A stretch of 64,000 bases of DNA from Longimicrobiales bacterium (GCA_963664435.2 CAXXKM010000001.1:672001-736000); one strand, 5' to 3'. Shown: positions 28,061-54,183, counted from the first letter of the stretch. Notes: generated by a model not told the origin, from the letters alone. Program-made: numbers and translations.

Positions 28061-28181
28061 CGGGGCGCAGCCCCGGCGTAACCCGTGATCCGCTCAGGCA
28101 GGCTCTTCATAGTATCACCGCTCTCCGTCGCATAGTATCATCGCATTGCGGGGTCAAGACCTGCCCCGCGGAGACCCGCTG

Positions 28182-31100
28182 ATGACCGAAGAACTCAAGA
28201 GTGCCAGGGACAAGGTTCTCGTAGACAATACGGCGCAGGCTGTCTTCAAACACCTCGACCGCATCAAGGACAACCGCAGCGCGCTGGGCGCCCGCTGGAT
28301 CTGGGAACTGCTGCAAAACGCCCGTGACGCGGCAGGCCGACAGGGTGTCCAGATCAGGGCCCATGTGTCGGCCAGCGAGTTTCGATTCGAGCACGACGGC
28401 AAGCCGTTTGCTTCCAAGGAGATAGCACATCTAGTCTACCACGGCTCGACGAAGATCGATTTCGAGGACATCGGCCAGTTTGGTTCAGGATTCCTGGCCA
28501 CGCACCTCCTGTCCAAGATCGTCCGCGTCACCGGGCGGCTCGAGGACTCGCGCGGGTTCGACTTCCCGCTGGACCGCACCGGCGGGACCGCCGAAGAGCT
28601 GCGCGAAGCAATGGACCGTTCGTGGGCTGCGTTCGAGCAGTCAGTCCAAGATGCCCGACCTGCATCGGACGCAACCACCTCTTTCGCGTACAATACCGCT
28701 GAACCGGGGGCGCGCGAGCTTGTCGAGGCAGGGCTGGAGGAACTTCGCCGGAGCGGACCGCTGGTCTTGGCGTTCTGTCCGGAGATCACGGAGATCGCCG
28801 TCGAGACCTCCGATGCCGAGTGGAAGCTCTCACGAGAAAGCCGGGAAGAAGGCGGCATCCGAATGATTCGGTACGTGGGAGACGCCGGGGAGCAGTCGCG
28901 TTTCGTCGCAGTCGCGGGAGCGGAAAGCGAGTGCTGCGCGGCGCTCCAACTGCGCTCCGGGGAATCCGGACTTGAGGTGGCCCCAGCGCAGGAGACGGCG
29001 GCGAAGCTCTTCGTGCTGTTCCCTCTCGTTGGCAGCGAGCGGCTGGGGCTCCCGGCCACGGGTCAACAGCCGACAGTTCAAGCCCCGCGAGGACCGGGAC
29101 GGCATCGTGGCCGGGGACTCGGTAGGCGCGCTAGGAAACAGGCGGCTCTTGGAGGCCTCCGTGCGACATCAGGAGCAACTCTTCGAGTGGTGCGCGCAGA
29201 AGAAGTGGGCGGGTGCGGAGCGAATGCTTGCCTTCGACATCGCACGGCTACCTGACTGGGCAAAGGGTGCCCCTTGGTTCCGCCCGCTGCTGATCGAATT
29301 GGTGTGCAAGGCTCGCGAGACTCCGCTAATGCGGACCCCGGGAGGGGAATGGACCGAACCGCAGGCAGCGTGGCTGCCGACGACTGACGACCCGTCGCAC
29401 CGTGAGTGGCTCTGGAAGCTCATGTCGTCGTGGGAGGGGGCACAGGCGAGGTTGCCCTGCCTCGACGACTTGGCCTCTTGGTCACGGAACCTCTCTGGAT
29501 GGCAGACACTCCTGCGCAGATCGCGCGAAGACATGGACGAGGCCCTCACGATCACCAAAGTCGCCCGTCTCGTCGGCGACGCGCGCAGCGTGGACGGACT
29601 GCAGGAACGATTGGTAAACGGCGCGGCGCAGTCCTGGCTCGTGTCGCTGCTCGAACTTGCACTGGATGCCGGCGAAACCGGACTCCTCGACACGCACAAC
29701 CTGCTACCGACTCAGGGCGGCGGGCTGCGCCGACGTCCTGACATTCGCCGCGACGAGGGAATCTCCGAAGAACTCAAAGACATCGCGGAGGCGTTCGGGC
29801 TGGAAATCCGCGACGAACTGCTCGACAAGCGCGCAGAGATGGAAGGACTGGCGGAGCTTCTCACGTCGGAGGGCGAGCCGGAACTGCTCGACAAGGTCTT
29901 GGCGCGCGTTAAGGAGGAAGCCCGGGACGGGGTGATCAGGACGCGGCTCGCACCTTGGGTAGTCAAGCTGTTCCGCTGGATCGCTGACCGTCCGGATTAC
30001 GTCGAGCGCTTGGATGGCTATCCGGTGCCGACATCCGAACAGTCCGAGGAAGGAGTCGTTGTGCTGCTTCTCGAGCGGGGACGCGAGGCGCCCCTACGGC
30101 CACTGGCACCGGTGGCGACCTGGCCCGAGTGCGCGCAGCGGTTCGGTTCCCTGTTCCCGAGACGCAGGGTCCTGGCGGAAGCCTTCGCCGACGGCGATCC
30201 CGAGGTGTGGCCGCGCCTAGCCGCGATCGGCTACGTGAACGCGTCCCCGCTAATCGAGACGCAGCGCGTGGTGGAAGCGTTCCTGCCGGACGAACCGCTC
30301 CCGGACACAGAGGAGACCCCCTTGGGATCGCACAAGTCGACGCAGGAGTTGGAGGTATCGGATGTCGCCTGCCTCGTCGGGGCCAGGGGCCTAATCGACA
30401 CGGCCCGTAAGAGTAGGAAACGCGCCACGGAGTTCGTCCGGTTCTTGGTCGAGTTCGCGGCCGAGGCGGACGAGCGCGCCTTCGAAGTATGCGAGGTCGA
30501 CTGCGAATGTGGGGACAGCCACAGGACCTACCGGGCCGCATGGCTCGCGCCGCTACGCCATCGGCGGTGGGTGCCGCTCGGCGCCCGCGGGCGCCGGGGG
30601 ACGATGGCATCGGCGGAGTCGTTGGCGGGGCTCCTCGATGACTCGCAGGAAGTCTCGGAGATCCTGTCCGGGATCCGGGCAGAGAAGCTCTTGGACGCCT
30701 TGGCAATCAGCCGCGCGGACCTCGCGCTACGGGTTGTCGCCGGCGACGAGAACGAGCGGCTGGCGCTGATCGCGTCGATGCAGGATCTCGCCGCAGTGGC
30801 TGGTGACATCGACCGTGTTCGGGAGCTGACGACCGAGATCCGCGAGCACCCGGAGATCATCGACTCAATCAGAGAGCGGAAGATCCGTCGGACCAAGATC
30901 CAGCGGAATCAGGAGATCGGGAACCTAGTCGAGCAGCTCCTGCGGCAGGAGTTGGAAGGCCGCGGACTGACCGTGCGGCGTACCGGGATCGGGTCCGACT
31001 TCGAGGTTGAGAGCGACTTCGTCGAGGAAGAGCAGGAGGTGGGCCTCGAACTTTCCAGCGGCCGCGGCACCACGCTCATCGAGGTGAAAAGCACTAGGAT

Positions 31101-31434
31101 CGACCAGGTGAAGATGACGCCCGTCCAGGCGGAACGCGCCTCCACCCTCGGCGACGGCTTCGCGCTGTGCGTGGTCCCCCTCGATGACGACGTGCCGACC
31201 GCCGACACGATCCACGAGAGACTGCGTGTCGTGTTCGGGATCGGAGCGCGCCTCGAGTCGGCGCTGTCCGGCTACAAGTCCATGCGAAAAGCCGCGGACG
31301 CCGCCCGCGAACCGCGGGGCGCGGTCGAACTTGAGATCCGGGAAGGCGAGGTGCGCTTCCGGATCGGCCGTCCGGTCTGGGACGAAGGACTGCCGTTCCG
31401 TCAGGCAGTCGATCGGTTCGGAGGCCGCGACTGA
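28182..31434 (+). pseudogene. Sacsin-like GHKL ATPase with C-terminal DUF3883-like nuclease, split by a +1 frameshift near 29060
   Basis: WELLQNARDA, HDGKPF and GQFGSGFLATHLLS in the first frame; VNSRQFKPREDRDGI and C-terminal GSDFEV...LIEVKST in the second. Removing one G from GGG at 29060-29062 gives continuous LGLPATVNSRQF. Confidence 0.75.
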
Positions 31435-31497
31435 ACCCAACCCGGCTTGACCGCAGGCACGTACTCGCGTGAGCTGCGCAACGTGTCTAGCATGGTC

Positions 31498-32733
31498 TGT
31501 TGTAGAACGGTAATCACCTGACAGATGTCCCCCGGAGGGGACGGTGGCCAGACCGGCCTCACCGAGGTTAGTTGAGAAGAGGTCCAGTCCAATCAACAAC
31601 CACGGAAGAGAACCAGAATAACCACCGTCCAGGCAGAGAAGGTAGCGCGCCGCAAGCTGTCCCTGCTACAGCTGGCCCAGGAGCTTGGCAACGTCTCGAA
31701 GGCGTGCCGGGATCGTGGGCTACAGCCGTCAGCACTTCTACGAGATCCGCCGTAACTTTCAGGTCTACGGCGCGGAGGGGCTGCTCGATCGGATGCCCGG
31801 CGCGAAGGGGCCGCATCCGAACCGCGTCGCGCCGCCGATCGAGAAGGCCATCCTGGCCCACGCGCTCAAGCACCCGACCCACGGCGCCCAGCGGGTGGCC
31901 GACGAACTGATGCTCAGAGGGCTCCAGGTCAGTTCAGGCGGAGTGCGGGGCGTGTGGACCCGCAACAAGCTCCTGACCCGTCACCACCGACTGCTGAAGC
32001 TGGAGGAGACGGTCCGCAAGCGGAAGATCAAGCTCACCGAGGAGCAGATCCAGGTACTGGAGCGCTTCGACCCCGAGTTCCGCGAGCGCCACATCGAAGT
32101 CCATGCCACGGGGGAGCTTGTGGCCGTGGACACCTCCTTCGCGGGCACCCTCAAGGGCGTCGGCAAGGTCTACATCCAGACCGTGCTCGACTGTTTCAGC
32201 CGCCACGTCCGGGCCCCGCTCTACACCTCGAAGATGCCCGTGACCGCCGTCCAGATCCTGAACAACCACGTGCTGCCCTTCTTCGAGAAGCACGACGTGA
32301 AGATCCGGACCATCCTGAGCGACAACGGGCGCGAGTACTGCGGCCGGCCGGACAAGCACCCCTACGAGCTCTTCCTGCAGCTGGAGGACATCGAGCACCG
32401 GACCACCAAGGTGGGGAGGCCCCAGTCCAACGGCTTCATCGAGCGGTTCCACCGCACCCCTCTCGAAGAGCATCTCGGGATCAAGGGGCGGACGACCTGG
32501 TACGAGACCGTCGAGGAGATGCAGAGGGACCTGGACGTGTATCTTGAGACCTACAACCAGCGGCGACCGCACCAGGGCCGCGGCATGGAGGGACGCACGC
32601 CCTACGCGGTCTTCAAGGCCGGGATCGCCCGGAAGCGCACCCGCAAACCCTCGGCCAGGAAGGAGGTGAAGAAAGCAGCGTAGGACCTGACCTCGGTGAG
32701 GCCGGGTGTCAGGCGATTACCGTGCGGAGTACC
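31498..32733 (+). mobile_element. IS481-family element, degenerate
   Basis: Transposase from 31618 (ATA where ATG is expected) KVARRKLSLLQLAQELGNVSKACR, extra G at 31709-31711, then SDNGREY and PQSNGFIERF to 32683. Inverted repeats 31507-31523/32707-32723 (16/17) and 31553-31567/32691-32705. Exact ends approximate. Confidence 0.85.
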
Positions 32734-33003
32734 CGAGTCGCGAATCTCGGCAAGGAATCTACTAAGTTGAACTGGGACTGCACGATCTGCGTTTCTTGCC
32801 GTCGGGCCGTGGGGGCTTCTACCGTGCGCGAAGTGCGGGAACATCGCCATCAAATGGCGGGAACCCGCGGGGGCACGCCGCCTGATCCATCGACCCGGCC
32901 GATGGCAACAGCCTGTAGCGAGCCTCATCCTCGATGTCCCTCGTCTGGCGCCGCGTGTTGGGATGACAACTGTTCGTGTACGATGCTCCACGTCCATACG
33001 TAC

Positions 33004-33705
33004 CTATCTGATAGGACAACCCACACTCCTGAACCAATTGCCAACTACGACATCTGTCGTTCGGCAGAATACTTGCACCAAGTCCAGCATAGCTGTCACA
33101 TCCAGTGGCGTACTACTTGCGCCAATGTTTCCGTGAGCAATCTGGTTCCTCTGTTCGACCACGTTGTTGACCATGTTGATGCACGGTCGACAATCCGCGC
33201 GAAGCTGACGTTCGAGATCACCCTTGTAGTCTCGGTAACCGAATCGCGCAACGAACTTCTGGATTTCCCGGAAGCGCGGTGTTGAGAAGCCCGCGACCAC
33301 GCGTTCGAACGGCAGCTCCTCCTGGAAACTGTCCTCTCCGCACCAGATGTCTTGGTCTCTTCTAAACATAGTCACGATCTTTTCCGCAATCCTGTCGGGG
33401 TCTTTTGTATCACGAATCTCGTCGATTAAATCCTTGGAACAGAAATACATCAACCGGGGTGACAGTAGGCGCTTAGGGACCCCTTTCTCGACGATTCTAC
33501 AAACGATCACCTCCGCAAGATCCTCCATATAGCCCTCAATGCGACTAGACAGCAACACGACCGCTGCTCGACATAACGCGCGCGCGGTTGGCGCGTTCGC
33601 CAACGGTCCCTTCGCGCGGCTCTCCGCCTTCGCGAGTCGCACTAGTGTTCTGACCTCTTCCACTCCTTTCACGAAGGCAGAGTACGCTTCCGTATATCGT
33701 GCCAT
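33004..33705 (-). CDS. HEPN-domain protein (MAE_28990/RiboL-PSP type)
   Basis: RAAVVLLSSRIEGYMED and QRNQIAHG (RxxxxH); translationally coupled to the DUF262 gene. Confidence 0.8.
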   Translation of the reverse strand: MARYTEAYSAFVKGVEEVRTLVRLAKAESRAKGPLANAPTARALCRAAVVLLSSRIEGYMEDLAEVIVCRIVEKGVPKRLLSPRLMYFCSKDLIDEIRDTKDPDRIAEKIVTMFRRDQDIWCGEDSFQEELPFERVVAGFSTPRFREIQKFVARFGYRDYKGDLERQLRADCRPCINMVNNVVEQRNQIAHGNIGASSTPLDVTAMLDLVQVFCRTTDVVVGNWFRSVGCPIR

Positions 33706-34799
33706 CAGAATACCTGTTGAACGAGTCGCTCGTTCCAGATCTCAAAACGCCGCAGCGTCCGGCTCTTGTGGTCGATCGAGCGCCCGATCAAATCCTGAAA
33801 CTCCTCATCTTCGAAGAGACGCGTATACTGACGTCGAAACTCCGATGCTTCACGCTGCACGATAGCCCGAGGCGTCTCAGACATAGTTGTCATGACGAGA
33901 TCCATTAGAGCACGATTCACCACTTGGCGTTTTGCTCCGCGGTCCAAGCGCCGAAAGCAATCTCTCGGCGGGAAAACTATCAGGCACTTGTCGATAGTAT
34001 TCCTCCAAGCCTGTTCAAGTGCATCAAGTCTGTCGTCAGTATAGTGTCTACCCTTTTTCGCAACGTCGTTCAGCCAACGCTTCTGCGGAGTACGATAGCT
34101 ATCAAGGCCTTCTATATGGAACGCGAAGAATCGAAGTATCAACTCTTCGTCACGCAGTCTTTTGTCTGGGCGCGTCCTCCCCAATATATCGAGCCATGGC
34201 TTATGCTCAGACAGCCGCGACAGGAGGTCATTCAATGTGCCACGGTAGATGCAGTTGCGGAGTTCCTGTGCATTCAGTGGCATGGTATTGGTGTTTAGTC
34301 TTTCGAAGACATCAAACTGTATTTCCGGATCAGAATCGTTAGTGATGATTACGGCACGCAGAGTGTGCGTTTCGATTTGACGTTGTAAGCGACGATCTAG
34401 TTCGTGAAACCGCTTACCATTCAATTCCGACACAACCGCGAGCCCAGATAAGGCGAATTGATTGTCCAGGAATCGAAAAATGGAATAAATGCGTTGCTGC
34501 CCGTCTATCACGCTGAGTTCATAATCGTCATTCTGAGAAAAGTAGCAGGGTGGAATCGGAATGTTGAGGAGGATGGACTCGATTAGTAGAGATGCGAGAC
34601 GGTTGGGCCATACGTACCCGCGCTGAAAGCGCGGTCGCTCGCTCAATGGACGAAGGTGCAGCGTCTTGGCCTCTATCTCGCCCATCAGGGACCGAACATT
34701 AAGGTCGTACGGTTGAGTGAATAGCTTGCGATCGCGGACGGGTAACGCATCGGGATCGGGTTCGTACTTGGCCCGTTCGTCTTCGTACAGTGTCGTCAT
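33705..34799 (-). CDS. DUF262 (ParB/GmrS-like) protein
   Basis: FQRGYVW, LIESILLNIPIP, IDGQQR, FERLN and QELRN motifs; low GC. Confidence 0.88.
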   Translation of the reverse strand: MTTLYEDERAKYEPDPDALPVRDRKLFTQPYDLNVRSLMGEIEAKTLHLRPLSERPRFQRGYVWPNRLASLLIESILLNIPIPPCYFSQNDDYELSVIDGQQRIYSIFRFLDNQFALSGLAVVSELNGKRFHELDRRLQRQIETHTLRAVIITNDSDPEIQFDVFERLNTNTMPLNAQELRNCIYRGTLNDLLSRLSEHKPWLDILGRTRPDKRLRDEELILRFFAFHIEGLDSYRTPQKRWLNDVAKKGRHYTDDRLDALEQAWRNTIDKCLIVFPPRDCFRRLDRGAKRQVVNRALMDLVMTTMSETPRAIVQREASEFRRQYTRLFEDEEFQDLIGRSIDHKSRTLRRFEIWNERLVQQVF

Positions 34800-37901: not shown

Positions 37902-38714
37902 CAGCCGGCGCCCCGACCCTAATCTTGGGCCACGGCAGCCCACGCGGGAGTCCTACCGTTGGAACAGATGCTACGCGGGAGTAGTGGCTTCCGCTCAGGC
38001 GTCGGCGTCACCGCACCAGCTCAGCGGGTTGTCGGACGCCTCCATCCGATGAACGCAGCTCCGCCGATACGTGGGTGGATGACACCACATTCGACCGATT
38101 CTGGCTGACCGTCTTCGTGGAGGCTTGTCGGGTTCTCGCCCACATCCACATCACGCCCTCCGTCCACGCCGCTAAACGACGCCCGCCGCAACGCATCCTG
38201 ACGGGTCTCCCGCTCCGGGCCGTCGTCCCGTCTGGTTCCCATTCTCCGCTCCTATTCTTCCACCCTTCTCGTCTCGACTCCCTCCAAGTTGTACCCTGCG
38301 GAACCGGAACCAAATGGCAGAATGAGGCCGGGGATGTTCCGGATGAGCAGTAGCGCTCACACTCGGCTGCTTCACAGGGGCCTTCCCCAACATGGAGCGA
38401 CCAGGGATCCGTCGGTGGGCTGGTTGCGCCCTGTCCGTGCTTCCGCCCGGATGAGTCGCCTCCATCCCGCCACGATGCGGGTGCTGCCCGTGCAGCGGGC
38501 ATGCTCCTTGCAAAAGTGTGAGCGAGCCCGGCAGGCTGAAGGCGATTCCAGCCCGTCGGTCGAGCGCAGGTTCCCGAACGAACGCGTCGACCATTACCGG
38601 GTCTCAGTAGGGACAGCGACTGGACGGGTCCAGTGATTCGACATTGGCCCCAAAGACGCTCTCAGACGGGAGAGGACGCCCAAATGGGCGATGTTCTCAG
38701 CGATTCTCCGGTCC

Positions 38715-38750
38715 GTTTTGCGCACGATAACTGGATTTATCGCGCGCTAC
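38715..38750. other. Left lox-like recombination site: GTTTTGCGCACGATAA-CTGGAT-TTATCGCGCGC
   Basis: Palindromic arms around a 6-bp asymmetric spacer; 32/33 identical to the reverse complement of the right site. Confidence 0.85.
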
Positions 38751-38784
38751 GGCTATGTAATCGTTTCGTTGTCACGCGGTTACG

Positions 38785-38813
38785 AGCTTAAGCGACCGCG
38801 GTCTCCCGCGCAA
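38785..38813 (-). promoter_or_regulatory. Outward-facing sigma70-like promoter inside the invertible segment: TTGCGC-N17-TAAGCT
   Basis: On the minus strand, -35 at 38813-38808, 17-nt spacer, -10 at 38790-38785; points at the left lox-like site. Confidence 0.6.
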
Positions 38814-38894
38814 CGGTCGGAGAGAGAGGGCCGGGAGCAGCGGTCATGCCGACCGTTGGCCGTATGTTCCTGAACCCCGACGACAAGGCGATCT

Positions 38895-39878
38895 TCAGCG
38901 CTGCTGCCTCGCGGCCAATTGTGCCGCGCCGCTACGTCGCGCCAGCAATCGCTCGCCGTAGCGTTGGACCATCCGCGCACTCTTCCAACGCCCGGCCTGC
39001 AGGATCGCCGGCAACTCGATTCCGCAGGCAATCATGTCTTGAACCGGCCCCACGCGCGTGCTGTGCCCCGCCAGAGCGTCCACAGTGTCGGCGGGAATCC
39101 CGGCACGCAGGGCCATTGACTTGTAGATGCGGGGCACTTGACTCGGAGGGAGCTGCTCGCCCACAGAGCCGTCCTTGCGCACCGAACGGAACAACCGCCC
39201 ATCGGCGATTCCGCTGCGGCCAAGCCAGACCTTGACGATGCTCACCGTGTCGCGCGCGAGAAAGAGCATGGCGCCTGCCCCTTCGGGATCCGTCTTGCTC
39301 GTTCGCACGAGCAGCGTTGCGGAACCATCGGCTTCCTCCGCCAGATCCGACACGTCCAGCGACACCAGTTCGGATCGGCGCAACAGCGTGTCGTAGGCCA
39401 CGGCCAGCAGGGCGCGATTCCGCGCGTCGATCAGCCGCCGTCCCGCGGCCTTGATCAGTCGGTTCCGGAGCGGCCAAGTGAGCCCCGTCACCTGAGTTTG
39501 TCTGCGTCCCCGGTTCCGGTACATCCGCTGGAGGGCCAGCTTCACGGCCGTGCTGTCCGCCGGGTTCGGTAGGCGTAGCGTCTTGTGGAGCGTCGCGATG
39601 CTGGATACGTAGCGGCGCACGGTGGCCGGAGCCCTGCTGCTGCCCATGTCGTCGATGAAGGCGATCAAGGTGTTGGCGCTCGCGGGCGCGGCCACCATGC
39701 CGTCCTGCTGGCACCAGGCCAGGAATACCCGCAGGTCGGCCCTCAGCGCCCGCTCCGTGTTCCGGCTGAAGGCGCTGTTAACCGTCTCGAAGAAGCCCGC
39801 TAACTGCTCCGCCACGTCCGCGTCTGATTCTGCGCCGGTCAAGGAATCTATGTGTGGTTTCGTGTCTGCATCTGGCAT
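38895..39878 (-). CDS. Cre-like tyrosine recombinase
   Basis: N-terminal SAM-like core-binding domain (NTERALRADLRVFLAWC, APATVRRYVSSI), YDTLLRRSEL, SKTD, GHSTRVG and GRWKSARMVQRY (W for the second H, as in Cre). RBS GGAGG before ATG 39878. Confidence 0.9.
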   Translation of the reverse strand: MPDADTKPHIDSLTGAESDADVAEQLAGFFETVNSAFSRNTERALRADLRVFLAWCQQDGMVAAPASANTLIAFIDDMGSSRAPATVRRYVSSIATLHKTLRLPNPADSTAVKLALQRMYRNRGRRQTQVTGLTWPLRNRLIKAAGRRLIDARNRALLAVAYDTLLRRSELVSLDVSDLAEEADGSATLLVRTSKTDPEGAGAMLFLARDTVSIVKVWLGRSGIADGRLFRSVRKDGSVGEQLPPSQVPRIYKSMALRAGIPADTVDALAGHSTRVGPVQDMIACGIELPAILQAGRWKSARMVQRYGERLLARRSGAAQLAARQQR

Positions 39879-39912
39879 CGAGTGGCCTCCGGTTCGGTCG
39901 CAAGGACCGCGC

Positions 39913-39950
39913 GTTTTGCGCGCGATAAATCCAGTTATCGCGCGCAAAAC
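39913..39950. other. Right lox-like recombination site: GTTTTGCGCGCGATAA-ATCCAG-TTATCGCGCGCAAAAC
   Basis: Perfect 16-bp arms. Spacer ATCCAG is the reverse complement of the left spacer CTGGAT, so the two sites are inverted. Confidence 0.9.
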
Positions 39951-39979
39951 TCCCTGCGAAACAGGAGGCGAACTCGAGA

Positions 39980-42556
39980 ATGAACATGATTGGTCAAAGG
40001 ACTAAGCTGGACGGATTGGCGTGCCTCGCGCGTCCTTGGCAGGCGACACTCGCCCTGGCCCTCGCCCTGCTGGCGGGCACCGGGACTGCTGCGGCACAGG
40101 ACACCATGCCCCCGGGGCTGGAGTACGCGAGGATCGACGGGACGACGCTGACACTCCGATTCGATAAGCCGGTGGGGTTAGGGATGCCCAAGCAGGTCGT
40201 GCACGGGTTCACGGTCGCCGGGATCTCGGACAGCGCCAGCGTGCATCCGACTACGATGAAGTGGGACAGCCGGACGGCCACACTCGAATTCGGCACGCGC
40301 GCGGAACCGGGGCAGACGGTCACGGTGAGCTACGATCCGGACGAGGTCCCCAACTCGCCCCCCACTCCGGAGCACCCGAATGGGCTGCCCGCGGCCCTGG
40401 TCTACACCGACGGCACCTGGGTGCCGAAGTTCTCCGACGCGCCGGTGACCATCCTGGCTCCGAAGCCCGCGACGGACCTCACGTTTTCGAACCAGTTCGG
40501 GTTGACAGTCGATCTGTCCTGGACGCAGCCCGTCCACCCCGAGGGCGTGGTCGCCAAGGTGGTAGTTGACGTGTCGTCAGACTCGCTTTTCTACACGATT
40601 GGACGTTGGCCAATCCATGCGGACTCGACCTCGATAACAATGATGATAGAACACGGATGGGGTTACACTGATTACTTCCGCGTCCGGTACTTAACCGACA
40701 ACTATCATGCGGATTCCGAGGTCGCGACGTGGACGAGTACGCAGGAGGGTCTGAAATCCCCCACCGGCTTGACGGCGTCGAACGCGACGCAGACAACGGT
40801 CGACCTAGCATGGACGCTACCGGATCAGGCCGTGTGGGTAGCGCAGGCGGCGTCGGTGGGTGAGGTCTGGAGCGAAGTGCAACAGCAGCAGGCGGATGGG
40901 ACCTGGAGCAGGGTGGCGAAGCTTGCCGCCGACGCGGTGGCGCACACAGTGACCGGACTGAGCGCCGGGACGGCCTACAGCTTCCGTGTTTTGCTCGATT
41001 CGCGCAATAACTTCGCGGACTCGGAGCCCGTGTCCGTGACCACCTTGGACGACAGGCCACCGCTGACGGCGGCGTTCCACGATGTGCCGGCCACGCACGG
41101 CGGCAGGCGCGCCGACTTTAGCTTCGAGCTTCGTTTCAGCGAGAACTTCCCGGGGAAGCTGCCCTACAAGAAGCTCAGAGACGAGGCGCTTAGTGCGACG
41201 AACGGCAAAGTGACGCGCGCGCGCCGGGCGGCGCAGAACCAGAACCAGCGCTGGATCATCACGGTGCGGCCGCTCTCGTCCGAGGACGTGACCGTGACGC
41301 TGGCGGCGACGACCGATTGCTCGGCGGCAGCCGCGATCTGCACGCCGGACGGTCGACCGCTGTCGAACTCCCCCTCGGCGACGATCCAGGGGCCGTCGGC
41401 GCCGGAGGCGACCGGCGTGAAGGTGTCATCGCACGCCGGCGCGGACAGCACCTATGTCTTGGGCGATACGATTCGCGTGACGCTGACTTTCAGCCAGCCG
41501 GTGGAGGTGACGGGCACGCCGCAGCTGAAGATCGACATGGACCCGGCGCACTGGGGCGAGAAGTTGGCCAGCTACGAGAGCGGCGGAGGGGACGACATGA
41601 CGTTCGCCCACGTGGTGGTGGAGCCTAATCTTTCAACCCAGGGGATCGCGGTGCTCGCGAACACACTTCGGCTCAACGGCGGCACGATCAGGTCCAAGGC
41701 GACAGGTGCGGACGCCGACCTGGCGCATGCCGGGCTGGCCCACGATCCGGCCCACAAGGTGGACTGGCGGCAGTCGGCGAGCTCGGGTGACGTGGCCAAC
41801 GGCGACGTGGTGGAAGACCCGTCGGTTCTCGCGGACGAGGCGCTGGCCGTAGCGGACGGGTTGAGCCCGGACGAGGCCGCCGCGGCGCTGTTCGGTGAGG
41901 GGACGCTCAGCGAGGCCAGGCAGGCCGCGCTCGACCTTCTGGGCAACCGGAACGGCGGCTACGATCTCGGGGACCTGCTCTCCTGGATCGAGCGCTGCCG
42001 AAGAGGTGAAGCCCGGTGCGGAGGAACACCTACCGATTCCAGTCCCACTTCGGGCGCCGCCCTCATCGGGGCTGCGGCAGCCGGACGGCGGGGGAACTCC
42101 AGGCGCCGCGGGCGCTCACGCGTCCGCGGCACGGGTCGCCGGGCGGGCAATGCCGGATGGGCGCTCACCGTGCTGCTCGCAGCCGCAATGACTTGGTCGT
42201 GCACCGGTGATGCGATGGCGCCAACCGCTCCGGCCGCCACCGTACCGGATCCGGGTCTCCTGACGGTCGAGTGGAGTGGGCCGGCAGCGAGAGCCGATAT
42301 CGGCGTCCTGCTGGAGTTGGAGGGTCCCACAATCGACGCCGTGCGAGCTCCCGGTCTCGAGCTGTACGAATCCGGAGCAGAGGAGCGCCATCAGATCGTC
42401 GTGGCGGGCGTCCTCCGGCCGGGTCCCCTCATGCAGTTCCACGTACCGGACCGCAACCAGTTCTCTCTGTACCGGGTCCGCGTCCTACAGGTCACGGGTG
42501 AGGGCTACGGGCTCCGGGACCCAACGGAGTACCGGGCCGTGGTCGTCACGAACTGA
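39980..42556 (+). CDS. Secreted multidomain surface protein (signal peptide, SwmB-like Ig fold, two FN3-like domains, EF-hand/dockerin-like motif)
   Basis: Signal peptide LALALALLAGTGTAAAQD; IDGTTLTLRFD...GQTVTVSY; PTGLTASNATQTTVDLAW...VTGLSAGTAYSFRV; LDLLGNRNGGYDLGDL. RBS GGAGG at 39964. Confidence 0.8.
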   Translation: MNMIGQRTKLDGLACLARPWQATLALALALLAGTGTAAAQDTMPPGLEYARIDGTTLTLRFDKPVGLGMPKQVVHGFTVAGISDSASVHPTTMKWDSRTATLEFGTRAEPGQTVTVSYDPDEVPNSPPTPEHPNGLPAALVYTDGTWVPKFSDAPVTILAPKPATDLTFSNQFGLTVDLSWTQPVHPEGVVAKVVVDVSSDSLFYTIGRWPIHADSTSITMMIEHGWGYTDYFRVRYLTDNYHADSEVATWTSTQEGLKSPTGLTASNATQTTVDLAWTLPDQAVWVAQAASVGEVWSEVQQQQADGTWSRVAKLAADAVAHTVTGLSAGTAYSFRVLLDSRNNFADSEPVSVTTLDDRPPLTAAFHDVPATHGGRRADFSFELRFSENFPGKLPYKKLRDEALSATNGKVTRARRAAQNQNQRWIITVRPLSSEDVTVTLAATTDCSAAAAICTPDGRPLSNSPSATIQGPSAPEATGVKVSSHAGADSTYVLGDTIRVTLTFSQPVEVTGTPQLKIDMDPAHWGEKLASYESGGGDDMTFAHVVVEPNLSTQGIAVLANTLRLNGGTIRSKATGADADLAHAGLAHDPAHKVDWRQSASSGDVANGDVVEDPSVLADEALAVADGLSPDEAAAALFGEGTLSEARQAALDLLGNRNGGYDLGDLLSWIERCRRGEARCGGTPTDSSPTSGAALIGAAAAGRRGNSRRRGRSRVRGTGRRAGNAGWALTVLLAAAMTWSCTGDAMAPTAPAATVPDPGLLTVEWSGPAARADIGVLLELEGPTIDAVRAPGLELYESGAEERHQIVVAGVLRPGPLMQFHVPDRNQFSLYRVRVLQVTGEGYGLRDPTEYRAVVVTN

Positions 42557-43144
42557 CAACCCCCACCAAGATGGGTCCCCCGACGCGCCCGACGAGGTCC
42601 GAGTGCGTCGGGGGGGCCACGCCCGCAGCGGCCGGGGCGCGCGCAGGTGTCGCGCGTCCCGGCCGCTTAAGGGTTGCACCAAGCAGCGCCTTCTTGAGGG
42701 GCCGGATGATGCCGGGTTGTCCAGTAGAGCCCGCGTCACTGCCAACCCCGACTTCCCGTCCCGCCATCCCCGCACCAGCGCACGTCGGTCCGCTGGCGCC
42801 GTAGGGCCGTCTGCCAGCCGCGCATGCGATGAAGCGCGCGGCCCGTCCGCGAACGCCATCCCTCTCCGGGCCGGGAATCGACCAGCTCCACTAGCGTCGT
42901 CCTCTTCCCAGCCACCGCCCGGCCTCGCGAACGGCATCCCCTTCCCGCGAACGCTCGACTTCCGTCGTGCCGCCCGGCGCGTGTCCCGAACCGGTCGCAC
43001 CTGGGCCGGGCTCCGTCGGTCGAGCCTCGCACGCCACCCCCGCTCTCGCATCCCCTCCCGCCTTCCGGAGGTGTGCGCCGCCGCACTGGCGACGGGCTCC
43101 CGGACGTCGCGGACAACGTCGGATAACTACTTACACCACGGACA

Positions 43145-43162
43145 CTTAGGAGATCTCCTAAG
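43145..43162. promoter_or_regulatory. Perfect 18-bp palindrome CTTAGGAGATCTCCTAAG next to TTGACT, candidate operator of the transfer operon
   Basis: Exact palindrome with TTGACT at 43165-43170, upstream of the first ICE gene. Confidence 0.6.
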
Positions 43163-43225
43163 AGTTGACTTCCTGGAAAAGGTCCTTTCAACGTTACGGG
43201 CCTTGACACGGCTGGATCGGCTCTC

Positions 43226-43777
43226 ATGCAGACCCTGGAGGAGCAATTCAACAGACGGCTGAACGCGTTCCTGGCCAGCACGGGCATGTGCCCGACGACG
43301 CTCGGCATGATGGCGGTGGGCGACCCGAGCCTGTTGCGCCAGATCGAGCGGGGACGCTCGCCGTCCCTCAGGACGGCGGACCGGATTCTGGCCTTCATGG
43401 CCGCCTACGAGGCGGACTCGGGCGGGGCGAGAGATCCGCCCGCCCGGCCTGCCGCGCCGAGGCCGGCGAGACGGTGGAGGAAGACGAACCGGAGCGGAGC
43501 GATGAGGAAAGACCGGAGGACTGCGAGAACGAGGCCGACGATCCGTTTCCTGCGGATCTCGGAAGTCGAGGCGCTGACCGGCCTGTCGCGGACCACGATC
43601 TACGACTGGTCGGCGGACGGGCGCTTTCCCCGGGCGGTCCGGCTGAGCGGGCGCGCGGTGCGCTGGATCGAGTCGGAGGTCCTGGAATGGATGGATGAGC
43701 GGATCGAGCACGACCGGGTCGGGGACGACGCCCCGGCGCCGACACCACAACTGACTCCCGAGGAGGAGAGCGAATGA
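43226..43777 (+). CDS. HTH-AlpA fusion regulator
   Basis: N-terminal Cro-like segment (PTTLGMMAVGDPSLLRQIERGRSPSLRTADRI) plus AlpA domain (FLRISEVEALTGLSRTTIY...FPRAVRLSGRAVRWIESEV). Confidence 0.8.
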   Translation: MQTLEEQFNRRLNAFLASTGMCPTTLGMMAVGDPSLLRQIERGRSPSLRTADRILAFMAAYEADSGGARDPPARPAAPRPARRWRKTNRSGAMRKDRRTARTRPTIRFLRISEVEALTGLSRTTIYDWSADGRFPRAVRLSGRAVRWIESEVLEWMDERIEHDRVGDDAPAPTPQLTPEEESE

Positions 43778-44061
43778 GAACGTTGTCGAGAACGCTGAAG
43801 GTGGCCGCCTGGGCCGCGCTGCTGGCGCTGACGCCGGGTGTGCTCTGGGCGCAGGGGACGAGCCCATGGGTCGAGGCGGTGGACGAGCTACAGACGCAGT
43901 TCACGGGTCCGATCGCGCGCGGGCTGTCGCTGATCGCGATCGTGGTGGGCGGGCTGATGTTCGCGTTCGGCGAAGGCGGCAGCAAGCGCACGCTGGCCGG
44001 GATCATCTTCGGGATCGGGATGGCCGTCGGTGCCGTGAACTTCCTGGCCTGGCTGTTCTGA
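43774..44061 (+). CDS. virB2: TrbC/VirB2 pilin
   Basis: Signal peptide, SPW...FTGPIARGLSLIAIVVGGL and two hydrophobic helices; first gene of the T4SS operon. Confidence 0.85.
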   Translation: MRTLSRTLKVAAWAALLALTPGVLWAQGTSPWVEAVDELQTQFTGPIARGLSLIAIVVGGLMFAFGEGGSKRTLAGIIFGIGMAVGAVNFLAWLF

Positions 44062-44366
44062 TGCGGGGACTGAGGCGCTGGGCGGGCTACGCCGCGCTCA
44101 ACCGGCCGCTCACCGTTCTGGGCGTCGAGCGGCGGCTGTTCCTGCTGGGCGCGACGCTCGCGCTCTCGGTGTGGAACGCGACGGCCTCGCTGGTGGCGGG
44201 CGGCGTGATCTTCGCCGGCTGCTACGGTGCGGGCTGGCTCGCTGGCCGGAAGGACCCGGCCATGCTCGCGGTGCTCCGTGCGGCGTCGCGCCACCCGGCG
44301 CGGTTCGATCCGGGCAAGTGGGCGGCTGAGCCCTGGCACCTGAAGGTCCGGGGAACCGGCGAGTGA
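44061..44366 (+). CDS. virB3: VirB3/TrbD family protein
   Basis: ALNRPLTVLGVERR, two TM segments and KDP; lies between pilin and VirB4. Confidence 0.8.
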   Translation: MRGLRRWAGYAALNRPLTVLGVERRLFLLGATLALSVWNATASLVAGGVIFAGCYGAGWLAGRKDPAMLAVLRAASRHPARFDPGKWAAEPWHLKVRGTGE

Positions 44367-46810
44367 GGGTCGCCGAGGAGCTTCGGGCGCACGAGGCGGC
44401 GGGCTCGCTGGCCGAGGAGCTGCCCTATTGGGGCTGGCTCGACGATGGCCGCACCTGCCTGGCGCGCTCGGGCGAGTTGATCGCGGCCGGCCGGCTGTTG
44501 CCCGCCGCCGTGGACGGGCGCACGCCGGAGCAGGTCGACCGGGTGCTGGGGCTCTGGCAGCGGCTTCTGTCGGGACTCGACCCGAGCGCGCGCCTCTACT
44601 TCTATCTGCTCCGGCGCCCGGCGGCGATGGCCGATCCGGCGGCTGCGAACGTTTCCGAGATCGCGTCCGTCTCGGGGCGTAAACGCCGTTCGTTCCTGGC
44701 CCGGCGGGTGCAGCGGCTGGACGCCTACGTCGTCTGGTCGCTCGGGTCCGCTCTCCGTCCGGTGGCCAGGCGCACGCGGTCCGGACCGCTGGCCCGGCTC
44801 GCCCGGCTGCGCAAGCGCCGGAAGAAAGGCGCGCCGACGTACCTCGCCTCCGAGGTCGAGGCGGCGGCGGACCGGTTCCGCGCGATGGTCGAGGCGGGCC
44901 GCTCGCTGGTGGCCGAGCACACGCCAGTCGAGATGCTGGAGGCCGTGGAAGCGTCCCGGCTGCTGTCGGAACTGATCAACCGCCCGGGCATGGCGTGGGA
45001 CGGCGCGACGGGCAGCGGCATGAACTGGCGGCTCGCACTGTCGGAGCTGGAGGCCGAGCGCAGTCACCTGAAGCTGGACGGCGAGCCGTTGATCCTCTAC
45101 TCGCTGTTGTCACCGCCGGGCCAGGCCCACGCCAACCTGCTCAAGGATCTCTACTGCCTCGATGCCACGTTGACCGTCTCGCTCGAATGGCGGCCGTGGA
45201 CGGTCGAGGCGGCCAGGCGGCGGATCCGGGGCGCGCAGCGGCACTACTTCTCGCGCCGCTACTCGATGATGGCGCACGTGCAGGAGACCGAGGGCACCGC
45301 GTCGGCGATGGTCGACTCGGCCGCCGCGGTCGAGTCGGACCGGCTGGGCGCCGCGCTCGTCGAACTCGAAGCCGACGGCGTGGCCTACGGCGAGGCGGCG
45401 CTCACCGTCGCGCTCCACGGCGAGCTTGAGGATATCGAGCGGCTGGACGGCGACGTGCGCCGCCTGTTCGCCGCGCACGACGCGAAGGCAGTCCGCGAGG
45501 GCTACGGCCAGCTGCCCGTCTGGTTCTCGCGGCTGCCGGCCCAGCCGCGCAAGCGGCAGGTCAGGACGGCGTTCGTCTCGGCCGGGCTCACCGCTTGCCT
45601 CGCGCCCGTGTTCGGGCCGCCGAAGGGTTCGGCCCGGTGCAAGCACCTGGACCGCGAGTCGCTCGCGGTGCTGGAGACGCCTTGGCGCACGGCGTACCAC
45701 TACGACCTGTTCCGTGGCGACGTGGGCCACACGCTGATCCTGGGCGCGACGGGCTCGGGCAAGAGCTTCGCGCTCAACTTCCTGCTGGTCGAGGCGCTCA
45801 AGTACGGTCCGCGCGTGCTGATCCTGGACCTGGGCGGCTCCTACCGCTGGCTGACCCGGTTCCTCGGGGGTTCCTACCTCGAGCTCACGCCCGGCAGCGA
45901 CGCCGATTCCGGGCTGAGCCTTCAGCCGTTCGCGCTGCCCGCGGGCACGCGCACGTTCCAGTTCCTGACCGGCTGGGTGCTCCGGCTGCTGAGGCTCGGG
46001 GGCTACGAGCCGACGGGCGCGGACACGAGCGAGATCCGCTCTCGGATCGAGGACCTGTACGCGCTTGGAGCCGAGCGCCGCACGCTGAGCGTGCTGACCG
46101 GCTCGCTTCCCGCCGCCATGTGGCCGGCGCTCAGCCGCTGGACCGGCGACGGCGTCTGGGGCCGGTTCTTCGACAACGCGCCGGTCGGCGGGGCCGACCT
46201 CGAGTTCCGCGACTGGCAGGTGATCGACCTGGCGGGCGCGGCGGAGCACGCGGACCTGTGCGAGGCGGCGCTGGCCTACTTGCTCGAACGGATGCGGCTG
46301 GAGATTGAGGACCCCCAGGAAGCCGCGCGGCTCAAGCTGATGGTCGTGGACGAGGCGTGGCGCTACCTGGCCGACCCGGCCGTGCTCGCCTATCTGGCCG
46401 AGGCCGCGAAGACGTGGCGCAAGAAGAACGCCGCGCTCGTGCTCGCCACCCAGTCGGCCGTGGACATGACCGGGACGTCCGGCGCATCGGCGCTGCTCGA
46501 GTCGATCCCGACGAAGCTGTTCCTGGCGAACCCCGAGTTGCCGGACGAAGTCGGCGTCGTGTTCCGGCTGAACGAGTCGGAGGTCGGGCGGATCCGGGAG
46601 CTGACGCCCAAGCGCGAACTGTATCTCCGGCGCCCGGACGAGGCGGCCGTGCTCCGCCTCGAAGTCGATCCGGAGAGCTACTGGCTCTACACGTCCTCGC
46701 CGCTGGACGCCGAGCGGCGGGCCGAGGCCGTCGAGAGACACGGACTCGCCAAGGCGCTCGAAGTCCTGGCGAACCCCAATCCCCAACCCACTACCCCAAG
46801 GAGGACATGA
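44363..46810 (+). CDS. virB4: VirB4/TrbE ATPase
   Basis: GHTLILGATGSGKS, VVDEAWRYL and KTWRKKNAALVLATQS. Confidence 0.92.
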   Translation: MRVAEELRAHEAAGSLAEELPYWGWLDDGRTCLARSGELIAAGRLLPAAVDGRTPEQVDRVLGLWQRLLSGLDPSARLYFYLLRRPAAMADPAAANVSEIASVSGRKRRSFLARRVQRLDAYVVWSLGSALRPVARRTRSGPLARLARLRKRRKKGAPTYLASEVEAAADRFRAMVEAGRSLVAEHTPVEMLEAVEASRLLSELINRPGMAWDGATGSGMNWRLALSELEAERSHLKLDGEPLILYSLLSPPGQAHANLLKDLYCLDATLTVSLEWRPWTVEAARRRIRGAQRHYFSRRYSMMAHVQETEGTASAMVDSAAAVESDRLGAALVELEADGVAYGEAALTVALHGELEDIERLDGDVRRLFAAHDAKAVREGYGQLPVWFSRLPAQPRKRQVRTAFVSAGLTACLAPVFGPPKGSARCKHLDRESLAVLETPWRTAYHYDLFRGDVGHTLILGATGSGKSFALNFLLVEALKYGPRVLILDLGGSYRWLTRFLGGSYLELTPGSDADSGLSLQPFALPAGTRTFQFLTGWVLRLLRLGGYEPTGADTSEIRSRIEDLYALGAERRTLSVLTGSLPAAMWPALSRWTGDGVWGRFFDNAPVGGADLEFRDWQVIDLAGAAEHADLCEAALAYLLERMRLEIEDPQEAARLKLMVVDEAWRYLADPAVLAYLAEAAKTWRKKNAALVLATQSAVDMTGTSGASALLESIPTKLFLANPELPDEVGVVFRLNESEVGRIRELTPKRELYLRRPDEAAVLRLEVDPESYWLYTSSPLDAERRAEAVERHGLAKALEVLANPNPQPTTPRRT

Positions 46811-46814
46811 CGCC

Positions 46815-47322
46815 ATGAGGCTACCGATCGTCACCGCCGTACTGACGCTTCTGCTGGCCGCGTACCCCGTCGGCGCCCAGGAACACAAGGCCGCTGAGAA
46901 GCGGGATGAGGACGCGACGTTCCTTCGCGTGCCCGCCGCCGAGGCCGGCCAGGACCACATTTACTCTGTTCGCGCGCGCGTGAGGCACACGACCGTGATC
47001 GTGCTCCCGGCATCCGAGAGGATCCTCGACTTCGTTGCCGGCGACTCGGAGTACTGGCACCTGACGGGTGCGGCCAACGTCGCTTACCTCAAGCCCCTGG
47101 CCGAGGACGCGGCCACCAACATCGCGCTCGTCTGCGAGTCGGGCCGCATCTACTCGTTTCTGGTCTCGGAGCACGGCGACGAACCCCCGCACCTGGTCGT
47201 CCGGGTCGAAGACGGACTGGATGCCGCGGGCATGTCCGGCACCGGCCTTCCCGCGTTCGTAGCGCGGAGCGAGGTCGCCGCCTACCGGGAGATGGCCGCC
47301 GAGGCGGCCGAGTCGGCGACGG
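46815..47322 (+). pseudogene. virB9: VirB9/TrbG, N-terminal part (interrupted)
   Basis: Signal peptide, RARVRHTTVIVLP..E, YLKP and TNIALVCESGRIYSF; composition changes abruptly at about 47322. Confidence 0.8.
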
Positions 47323-47469
47323 TAGCCTACTCTGATCCAGTAACATCCAAGGGCGTTCCGAGTAGTACAGCATATCGTTGTTATACAACGCTTTATCCAG
47401 ACTCCGACTGCTTCTTGTGCTCTCGTCACGTTCCTTGACGTCCAATCCCATCCCACATATTATGAGGTA

Positions 47470-48693
47470 ATGGATGACGTAACCCGCACCCCCGCCCCGA
47501 CCCGGAAAACCAAGCCGAAGGGCCGCCACCCCCACAAGCGGCTCTCGGCTGCCTTCGTGCGCGCCGCACCTCCCGGGAGGCACTGCGACGGTAATGGACT
47601 CTACCTCTACGTTCAGCCGAGCGGTGCGCGCAGTTGGGTGCAGCGGCTCGTCATTCGTGGCCGCCGCCGCGACTTCGGACTCGGCAGCGTTGCCTTGGTC
47701 TCTCTCGCCGAAGCACGCGAGAAGGCGCGGGCCAACCGCAAGCTCGCCCGCGAGGGCGGGGATCCGCTCGCCGAACGGCGTCGTGCGCGGGGCGTGCCCA
47801 GCTTCGCGGAGGCGACGAGGATCGTCCTGAAGCAGAAGCAGCCCGGGTGGCGCAGCAAGGCGCACGGGAAGTACTGGCTGTCGACTCTGGAACGCTACGC
47901 CTTCCCCCGGATCGGCAAGATCGCGGTCTCGGAGGTGGCCACGGCCGACGTTCTGGAGATCCTGACCCCGATCTGGCACACGAAGAAGTCCACGGCCCAG
48001 TCGGTGCATCAGCGCATGGGCTCGGTGTTGGAGTGGGCGGTGGCGATGGAGTACCGGACCGACAACCCCTGCGACCGGGTCCGGCCGGTGCTCGGGCCAC
48101 AGAATCGGGTCGTGAAGCACATGAAGGCGCTCCCTCATAGGGAGGTTGGAGCGGCGATCAGGAAAGCGAGGAGGACGGACCAGATGCCGGTGGCGCGCCT
48201 GGCGTTCGAGTTTCTGGTGCTGACGGCGGCGAGGTGGGGCGAAGTGCGTTGGGCCGAATGGTCGGAGATCGACTTGGGCGAAGCGGTGTGGACGGTGCCC
48301 GCCACGCGCATGAAGGCGAAGCGGGAGCACCGGGTGCCGCTATGCGGGCGGGCGCGGGAGATCCTTGACGAGGCGCGAAGGCTGGGCGGAGAGGACTGCC
48401 GGTTGGTGTTCACGCGGTTGAACGGACGGCCGCTTTTCGAGAAGCGGCTGCGCCAGCTGCTCCAGAAGCACCGGATCGCCGCGGTGCCGCACGGGTTCCG
48501 GTCGTCGTTCCGGGACTGGGCCGCCGAGGAGACGGACCATCCCCGGGAGGTGGTCGAGGCGGCGCTGGCGCACGTGGTCCAGAACAAGGTGGAAGCCGCG
48601 TACCGGCGTACCGACCTGTTCGAGCGGAGGCGGCGGCTCATGGATGACTGGGCAGCGTATCTCGCGGCCGGGAGCGCGGGCACCGAGACCTGA
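47470..48693 (+). CDS. P4-type tyrosine integrase with arm-binding domain
   Basis: DGNGLYLYV..SGARSW, SLAEAR, LTAARWGEV, MKAKREHRVPL, HGFRSSFRDW and LAH...EAAYRRTD. Confidence 0.93.
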   Translation: MDDVTRTPAPTRKTKPKGRHPHKRLSAAFVRAAPPGRHCDGNGLYLYVQPSGARSWVQRLVIRGRRRDFGLGSVALVSLAEAREKARANRKLAREGGDPLAERRRARGVPSFAEATRIVLKQKQPGWRSKAHGKYWLSTLERYAFPRIGKIAVSEVATADVLEILTPIWHTKKSTAQSVHQRMGSVLEWAVAMEYRTDNPCDRVRPVLGPQNRVVKHMKALPHREVGAAIRKARRTDQMPVARLAFEFLVLTAARWGEVRWAEWSEIDLGEAVWTVPATRMKAKREHRVPLCGRAREILDEARRLGGEDCRLVFTRLNGRPLFEKRLRQLLQKHRIAAVPHGFRSSFRDWAAEETDHPREVVEAALAHVVQNKVEAAYRRTDLFERRRRLMDDWAAYLAAGSAGTET

Positions 48694-50043: not shown

Positions 50044-50517
50044 CGGTCAGCCTCCAGGCGTAAACTCGAACGTGGCCAACGATCCATGTCGGGGAATGTA
50101 GCCTCGCACGGCTTCGCGGTGTAGATCTTCGTAGCGGCTGAGAAGCCCGTCCCGCCGACTCGGCAAGCCAGGGGGAGCAGAGATGTCGAATCCTGACGCC
50201 GAACCGTTTTTCCGTCGTCTTTGACACCATCCAGGAGACCGGCGGAACACTCTCCCGAGCGCTCCAGCACTGCGCCCGCCGGTCCCCCGATCTCCGGGGC
50301 GGGCTCGCCCGCCCCTCCCATCGGGGTTGGATTCCGAGACTGTCGTGTCACAGCTTCCCGCACGTGGCTCGAAGGCCGCGATCCGTCGGGTCGTCCACAA
50401 CCGTCCCGTACGGGCGATTGGAATCCCGTCCGGGAAGAGGTATGAAATGAGGTAACCTCTTGGTCGCGGGTCATGTAAGTATTTGCATAGCAGTCACTTA
50501 TGATCTTTTCTGACACA

Positions 50518-50859
50518 CTGGCGGCGCGCAGAGCGCAGGCGGCGGCGGACGCGGAGATCGAGGCGTTCCGCGCCTCCTACCCCACCCGGCTTGCGTTCGA
50601 GTACCGGCTGGACCGGGATGCCTCGAAGCGTCCATTCCTCGTCGAGGCGATGTGGCATGACGGGCAGTTCACCTATCTGCGATCGCGCGCCCAGGAAGCG
50701 CCGGCGCTCTATGAACTGCGGGACGGCGAGCCGAGCCTGGTCGCGTTCGATCTGACAGAGGACGGCCTCTACGTCGCGCGCCGCGTGCTGGGCGACGGCT
50801 GGCTCCAGATCGGAGACGAGCGGCTGCGCTGGCGGTTCGAGCCCGGGGACGCGCGATGA
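50518..50859 (+). pseudogene. virB9: VirB9/TrbG, C-terminal part
   Basis: FEYRL...PFLVEAMWHDGQFTYLR...PALY, typical of the VirB9 C-terminal domain; ATGA overlap with virB10. Confidence 0.8.
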
Positions 50860-54111: not shown

Positions 54112-54170
54112 GCATGGAAGATAGCGGCTTCTCCATGCGTTAACCCTGCCACTTATGCGACACTACACTA
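53033..54170 (-). mobile_element. IS630-family element with TA target duplication
   Basis: TA at 53033-53034 and 54169-54170; imperfect terminal IRs (TAGTGTTGTGCCGC / GCGACACTACACTA); single transposase ORF. Confidence 0.92.
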
Positions 54171-54183
54171 GGGGGCGTTCGCG

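Follow-up and report, generated by a model that had tools for sequence, protein, structure and literature searches.

DNA inversion is a well-established mechanism of phase variation in pathogens and in gut commensals. In the Salmonella Hin/hix system, the invertible H segment carries its own recombinase gene together with an outward promoter for a surface-antigen gene, the recombinase gene is immediately preceded by one of the sites, and the enzyme, Hin, is a serine invertase that depends on Fis and an enhancer. Among the tyrosine recombinases, Rci of the plasmid R64 shufflon varies the conjugation adhesin PilV, its own gene lying outside the shuffled coding segments; FLP of the yeast 2-micron plasmid is encoded between inverted FRT repeats, and its inversion serves copy-number amplification; and phage P1 has a single lox site, which serves circularisation and dimer resolution. 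The present analysis concerns an element of related design in a stretch of 64,000 nt from a Longimicrobiales bacterium (GCA_963664435.2, CAXXKM010000001.1:672001-736000), which is referred to below as the window and from the first letter of which all positions are counted. An earlier note, made by a model from the sequence alone, had described a self-inverting Cre/lox-like cassette in it that was predicted to phase-vary a surface protein. According to our analysis, the segment at 38715-39950 (1.2 kb) is probably, with a likelihood of roughly 0.6, a self-contained invertible switch of a Cre-type family that resides on an integrative conjugative element (ICE) and that would turn on a gene for a protein with FN3 domains when it flips.

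The enzyme of the cassette resembles those of Cre/loxP of phage P1, Dre/rox, Vika/vox and the YR series of PMC10250229 in its near-full-length similarity to Cre and in the catalytic set, which includes the tryptophan, and the sites resemble those of the Cre/loxP-type pairs in their length of 34 bp, their 13-bp inverted arms and their asymmetric 8-bp spacer with an adjoining GATA motif. The cassette differs from Cre/loxP in that two inverted sites surround the recombinase's own gene, which leads to inversion, in its low identity to Cre, and in a third, single half-site that is carried by the long-type relatives. The proposed working arrangement is like that of Hin/hix, but the enzyme is a Cre-type tyrosine recombinase, and the cassette is not a member of that family. 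In fimS with FimB/FimE, in the switches of Bacteroides and in C. difficile RecV, a tyrosine recombinase likewise flips a short segment bounded by inverted repeats and thereby switches a surface structure; however, the recombinase genes of these systems lie outside the element and the repeats are short and not lox-like, whereas the cassette has its enzyme inside, one enzyme per switch, and sites with a complete palindrome around a core. Rci and FLP share with it that they are DNA-inverting tyrosine recombinases on mobile replicons, but neither flips a promoter beside the gene of a secreted FN3 protein. Within the reach of a full-text literature search, neither phase variation by inversion in sponge symbionts nor a portable switch in which an enzyme of the Cre family flips its own gene was found, and the approximately 500 predicted recombinase/site pairs tabulated in the supplement of PMC10250229 might include relatives.

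The cassette and its presumed target consist of the following parts in the window:

38715-38750, no strand assigned: left lox-like site, with outer arm GTTTTGCGCACGATAA, core CTGGAT and inner arm TTATCGCGCGC
38751-38894, minus strand: non-coding inner segment that separates the left site from the stop codon of the recombinase gene and holds the candidate promoter positions
38895-39878, minus strand: gene for a Cre-type tyrosine recombinase of 327 amino acids (aa), assigned by Pfam, profile search and catalytic residues
39879-39912, minus strand: 5' leader of the recombinase gene, 34 nt long, with a GGAGG ribosome-binding site
39913-39950, no strand assigned: right lox-like site, GTTTTGCGCGCGATAA-ATCCAG-TTATCGCGCGCAAAAC, with perfect 16-bp arms
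39980-42556, plus strand: gene for a secreted surface protein of 858 aa (signal peptide, SWM_repeat and FN3 domains) that the switch presumably controls

The lox architecture and the inverted arrangement of the two sites, both of which had been claimed in the earlier note, are borne out by the site sequences, by an inverted-repeat search and by the paired sites of relatives. In the left site, the outer arm matches at 15 of 16 positions and the inner arm matches over its first 11 nt and diverges beyond; the left core CTGGAT is the exact reverse complement of the right core ATCCAG, so that the sites are inverted. The repeat search returned the two sites as a 33-nt inverted repeat with 97% complementarity and 1170 nt between the arms, and the arm pattern, searched with the core left free and with up to three mismatches, had two matches in the 64-kb window, versus 0.00 expected from 100 shuffles. 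The right site can be written as 13 + 8 + 13, that is, TTTGCGCGCGATA / A-ATCCAG-T / TATCGCGCGCAAA, which is the 34-bp layout of loxP, and in both sites thus divided the GATA motif adjoins the spacer, as is reported for active Cre-type sites in PMC10250229. The locus conforms to the usual arrangement of Cre-type sites, in which 34-bp targets with 13-bp inverted arms and an asymmetric spacer of 8 bp are located near the gene of the enzyme; here, one site lies 34 nt upstream and the other 145 nt downstream of the recombinase gene.

The similarity of the enzyme to Cre, also proposed earlier, is clearly supported. The open reading frame (ORF) matches Pfam Phage_integrase (6.6e-15) and no resolvase domain in Pfam, and it lacks the catalytic domain of the serine recombinases of the Hin/Gin-type resolvase/invertase group. 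A family profile, which was built from 20 homologues and aligned to Cre with HMMER, matched Cre with an E value of 1.5e-38 over profile positions 7-292 of 308, compared with 3.2e-07 for XerD and 6.4e-04 for an XerC-like protein, and the scores of the recombinase with the NCBIfam Xer models are far below the cut-offs. The residues R167, E170, K195, H272, R275, W298 and Y307 are invariant in all 20 homologues and align with the Cre motifs; the catalytic order R, E, K, H, R, W, Y and the closer similarity to Cre than to Xer place the enzyme in the Cre type. The distance between its ATG and the right site is 34 nt, close to the 35 nt that had been stated earlier, and it is roughly 35-45 nt in 23 loci of the family. 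Because the leader is so short, the promoter of the recombinase gene must overlap the right site or lie beyond it.

That cassettes of this family invert is shown by two of the relatives, L051 (genome G058) and L039 (genome G131). With both loci oriented by the recombinase gene, the two cassettes are collinear with 96.5% identity, and the flanks are exchanged: the right flank of L051 is the reversed left flank of L039 (98.8% over 7013 nt), and the left flank of L051 is the reversed right flank of L039 (98.6% over 1540 nt). At all four junctions, 50 of 50 nt outside the site are identical, and each outer arm is still joined to its flank and each inner arm to the cassette, a distribution that locates the exchange in the core. 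The two loci are a natural flipped pair, and the prediction that the cassette inverts thus holds at the level of the family, with the breakpoints inside the sites. In L039, an element of the IS256 family lies between the start of the recombinase gene and its site. L040 and L054 also have the minority orientation. At L054 (G058:C1:1-885), a single-contig assembly of 4.8 Mb starts inside the recombinase copy, and its other end carries no continuation of the locus; the contig start may reflect an assembly break at a polymorphic cassette.

Among 150 other genomes sampled from the same family, 13 contain homologues with 59-80% identity, and as many as six matches were obtained in a single genome. 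In the family set, which comprises three loci from the source genome and 20 from relatives, both sites lie in the search range in 21 of the 23 loci; in the two exceptions, the second site is displaced by the insertion sequence (IS) in L039, and L054 lies at the start of the contig. A further scan covered the GTDB genomes, one per species, and the best 80 of 200 relatives were analysed, a collection that partly overlaps with the family set. A core-anchored search found paired inverted sites in 68 of these 80 loci, and in 66 of the 68 pairs the cores are exact reverse complements, with 25 core types and conserved arms. Conservation of the arms, combined with a core that varies between cassettes yet matches within each of them, is what is expected of the partner sites of a tyrosine recombinase. 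CGGGAT/ATCCCG takes the place of CTGGAT/ATCCAG in copy 3, one of three copies in the source genome, and in four of five metagenome relatives; in copy 3, where CGGGAT is on the left and ATCCCG on the right, the same core position is altered at both sites. The core of copy 2 is the same as that of the window copy. In L046 and L053 (both G103), L057 and L113, the left and right cores are one base apart (e.g., TTGTAG versus CTACAG); these may be switches that have become locked, or they may have arisen by exchange between cassettes.

According to the record titles of the best 80 of the 200 relatives, which are metagenome-assembled genomes, the loci belong to Gemmatimonadota (Longimicrobiales, Ca. 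Palauibacter), Acidobacteriota (Vicinamibacterales, Terriglobia, Bryobacterales), Alpha- and Gammaproteobacteria (including Ca. Poriferihabitaceae), Latescibacterota, Chloroflexi and Poribacteria, at least six phyla overall, and several titles name sponge-symbiont taxa. The protein identity between cassettes of different phyla is 56-78%. The window enzyme has 72-74% identity to acidobacterial enzymes, compared with about 60% for most enzymes of its own family, which points to horizontal transfer.

The surroundings of the cassette are conserved as well. In the 60%-identity group of the family, the layout is constant and consists of a leftward hybrid gene, the left site, the recombinase gene, the right site and a rightward giant surface gene. 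The hybrid gene reads outward and encodes a GAF-PAS-HisKA-HATPase-receiver-OmpR-type protein of about 780 aa, and the giant surface proteins have 785-2265 aa with FN3, Calx-beta, cadherin or SWM repeats. Among the 80 GTDB loci, similarity to surface proteins is found divergently on the 5' side of the recombinase gene in 56 loci and on the 3' side in two (L112, L126), and no match was obtained in 22 loci with the queries used. In most loci, a distance of 10-200 nt separates the site from the start of the long surface ORF, and in all loci with a sufficiently long flank the surface gene is followed by an AlpA-like gene. The earlier note had asked whether homologous recombinases have the same inverted sites beside surface-protein genes and in both orientations, and the relatives answer this in the affirmative (68 and 56 of the 80 loci, respectively, and the pair L051/L039). 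Its statement that the DNA to the left holds no convincing gene is valid for the source genome but not for relatives of the same family, which have the outward histidine-kinase/response-regulator hybrid gene at this place; outside Longimicrobiales, the left neighbours are varied (methylase, subtilase, LuxR, transposase, autotransporter). In L085, L113, L114, L117 and others, direct repeats of the form TTGTGA(N5)TTGTGA are found beyond the left site, at a distance of 30-50 nt and in front of the gene for the kinase/OmpR-type hybrid, and may be candidate binding sites for the hybrid's own DNA-binding domain. A Terriglobia locus, L079, has an inverted repeat of about 650 nt some 1.5 kb to either side of the cassette in addition to the normal lox-like sites.

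The control of the surface gene would depend on an outward promoter at the 3' end of the recombinase gene. The particular promoter named in the earlier note, TTGCGC-N17-TAAGCT, could not be upheld: its hexamers are present (TTGCGC at 38813-38808, TAAGCT at 38790-38785), but each agrees with the consensus at three of six positions (6/12 in total), the promoter scan misses it, it is not kept in copy 3 or in relatives, and it lies 20 nt further in than the conserved box of the relatives. Nevertheless, its proposed place and direction fit the family. Of 59 loci, 24 have a -35-like box, defined as a hexamer that matches TTGACA at five or six of six positions, at the 3' end of the recombinase gene, and none has one at the 5' (right) end; the box precedes the core hexamer by 16-19 nt, the distance being 17 nt in 23 of these 24 loci. 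Promoter scans of three relatives from three subfamilies returned one site each, which in every case lies downstream of the recombinase gene and points outward, versus 0.1-0.2 expected. These sigma-70-like predicted sites are:

L058, outward: TTGACG-17-TACAAT
L085, outward: TTGCCG-18-TACAAT
L064, outward: TTGACT-17-TACAGT

Judged by these motifs, an outward promoter-like element at the 3' end of the recombinase gene is a feature of the family. The position that corresponds to the TTGACG-N17-TAnnAT of the relatives reads GTAACC (38783-38778)-N17-TTACAT (38760-38755) in the window, and the promoter of the window copy may be weak or missing. A small gene in the inner segment was considered and rejected, because several frames match equally among close relatives and there is thus no sign of a conserved coding frame. 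In long-type cassettes, i.e. those with an inner segment of more than 250 nt, which are found within L056-L133, an additional arm-like half-site is present in 48 of 48 cases, always single and in constant orientation; it lies about 160-200 nt (159-204) inside the left site in 46 of the 48, and 7 nt and 704 nt inside it in L066 and L090, respectively. An equal-length stretch inside the recombinase gene, used as a control, gave eight of 48. The half-site hints that the architecture of the cassette may matter for recombination at the sites.

The FN3 ORF starts 29 nt past the right site, with AGGAGG at 39964-39969. There is thus no room for a promoter between the site and the start of the gene, as the earlier note had pointed out, and the spacing is also close in relatives. 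A surface gene without room for its own promoter and an outward promoter that points away from it together suggest that the assembled orientation, which is the common one, would be the OFF state. In the mechanism that we propose, the recombinase would bind the two inverted 34-bp lox-like sites, which share a 6-bp crossover core, and strand exchange within the cores would flip the segment that carries the recombinase's own gene. In the assembled orientation, the outward promoter at the 3' end of the recombinase gene would point to the left and away from the FN3 gene; after a flip, the FN3 and AlpA-like genes would be immediately preceded by the outward promoter and the recombinase gene, which would establish the ON state. 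The flipping step is documented for the family by natural flipped and unflipped copies, and the window copy would be expected to undergo it as well. Control of expression between ON and OFF is suggested by the promoter-like motifs in relatives, and the motif is degenerate in the window copy. The unit is part of an ICE, and it has spread to several phyla of host-associated bacteria, among which sponge symbionts are numerous.

The wider context of the cassette comprises three further features:

38466-47318, plus strand: 8.85-kb unit that occurs three times in the genome with 92.7-96% identity, found with BLAST
42572-42667, plus strand: two GC-rich hairpins just after the FN3 stop codon, found in the inverted-repeat search
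43226-43777, plus strand: AlpA-like helix-turn-helix gene, present after the surface-protein gene in every long locus examined

The 8.85-kb unit contains the cassette, the FN3 gene, the AlpA-like gene, VirB2, VirB3, VirB4 and the start of VirB9. The site pattern has six matches in the 4.5-Mb genome, which form three pairs about 1198 bp apart, and the orientation of the cassette relative to the FN3 gene is identical in all three genomic copies. Downstream of the AlpA-like gene lie genes for TrbC/VirB2, VirB3, VirB4, a split VirB9, VirB10, VirB6, a coupling protein and ArdC, and this full run of type IV secretion system (T4SS) genes beside the cassette indicates that the cassette is located on an ICE. 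The hairpins after the FN3 stop codon may form a terminator between the FN3 gene and the genes downstream.

VirB9/CagX is present in two pieces, an N-terminal one (46815-47438) and a C-terminal one (50500-50859), which are about 3 kb apart; the insertion between them holds a P4-type tyrosine integrase (47470-48693), and the end of the 8.85-kb repeat, at 47318, lies just before this insertion. The genome contains nine copies of an IS of 1140 bp that encodes a DDE_3 transposase; one of these lies inside the T4SS cluster of the window (53032-54171), and the FN3 gene of copy 2 is broken by another (G000:C3:550010-551149). Upstream of the cassette, a defence-type cluster (24743-34799) comprises HEPN_Swt1/DUF499 (24743-28060), RiboL-PSP HEPN (33007-33705) and GmrSD_N (33705-34799). 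Around the left site (38670-38791), an ORF of 35 codons begins in the left flank, with an ATG at 38684 that is preceded by a Shine-Dalgarno-like GGAGAGGA, and extends across the whole of the left site; the Shine-Dalgarno motif and the first codons ATGGGCGATGT are kept in relatives with 74-96% recombinase identity, and the ORF may be part of the end of the conjugative element.

It should be noted that several observations speak against the interpretation as a promoter-bearing invertible switch. No flipped copy was found among the nine of the window subfamily (the three genomic copies, L055 and L138-L142), and a metagenome scan for flipped copies of this subfamily yielded six loci, five of them at full length, all five of which are collinear with the window. 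The orientation bias is strong throughout, with 56 versus two among the 80 GTDB loci and 20 versus three in the family set; as the related loci are kin and not independent, such counts overstate the support that can be drawn from them. Logan contigs of four of 23 public runs (sponge, viral and coded organisms), which are short and are broken at the cassette by the three paralogs, contained one 100-nt skip and no strand-change joint, a result that has no bearing in either direction on whether the cassette flips. A consensus promoter was not found in the window, where the scan of 38400-40200 gave no site; a TTGAC box is present in six of nine other aligned copies (TTGACG in five, TTGACA in L055), compared with GTAACC in the window; and no convincing -35/-10 boxes for the recombinase gene were seen by eye in the site and its flanks. 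The window copy and the other short-type cassettes have no accessory half-site, and the hairpins after the FN3 gene may uncouple the downstream genes from the switch.

The heavy orientation bias and the lack of a consensus promoter in the window copy would fit a maintenance system, in which the right palindrome would be a lox/dif-like site for dimer resolution and at the same time an operator for divergent promoters of the recombinase and FN3 genes, the left site would be a tolerated extra, and flipping would have no regulatory role. Such a role would be in line with the location on an ICE with a full T4SS and with the function of Cre/loxP in the resolution of plasmid dimers. However, two sites 1.2 kb apart in inverted orientation do not suit resolution, for which either direct repeats or one site per monomer are required. 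Across phyla, 68 of 80 loci have retained the second site, without exception inverted, and its core covaries with that of its partner in 66 of 68 pairs; flipped copies exist, and the promoter-like element is found at a fixed place at one end only; we therefore consider a pure maintenance function to be unlikely.

The sites might also be exchange points, at which recombination between copies swaps the adjacent adhesin genes in the manner of recombinase-mediated cassette exchange, inversion being a side reaction. Near-identical cassettes do lie beside very different surface genes, a common core is found in several cassettes of one genome (the window copy and copy 2, and three CTGGAT cassettes in one Vicinamibacterales genome), and the left and right cores of the two G103 loci are of different types. 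These mismatched cores, however, differ by one base and are explained equally well by point mutation, no pair of loci with swapped adhesins on an otherwise identical backbone was found, and local control is favoured by the conservation of the outward promoter and by the short distance to the start of the surface gene; this explanation is decidedly improbable. It is even harder to believe that the cassette is a tyrosine-recombinase transposon that has the inverted sites as its ends and inserts before surface-protein genes, notwithstanding the three to six copies per genome, the protein identity of 56-78% between phyla and the varying left neighbours, because the repeated unit in the source genome is 8.85 kb long and not the cassette alone, the right neighbours (the surface gene, then AlpA) travel with the cassette, and the ends are full palindromic core sites with inverted cores, which lead to inversion and not to excision.

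A self-contained invertible switch is thus the interpretation that we prefer, and it could have a wider role. The switch might be the master gate of the conjugative element, so that a flip would activate the FN3 or giant surface protein as a mating adhesin, along with the AlpA-like excision regulator and, in the source genome, VirB2-VirB4, and only the flipped subpopulation would be competent for transfer. We regard this extension as rather unlikely; if it were true, it would explain why a module of cassette, adhesin and AlpA is common to Gemmatimonadota, Acidobacteriota, Proteobacteria, Latescibacterota, Chloroflexi and Poribacteria in the same sponges.

If the interpretation as a switch is correct, the family would be a source of naturally occurring Cre-like enzymes whose sites have at least 25 different crossover cores and small differences in the arms, and these would be candidates for orthogonal recombinase/site pairs. 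For the bacteria themselves, it would mean that sponge symbionts vary giant FN3, cadherin and Calx-beta proteins gene by gene, with a private recombinase for each, and that this module is carried across phylum boundaries by conjugative elements. Such variation would bear on the question of how symbionts escape from being eaten by their sponge host.

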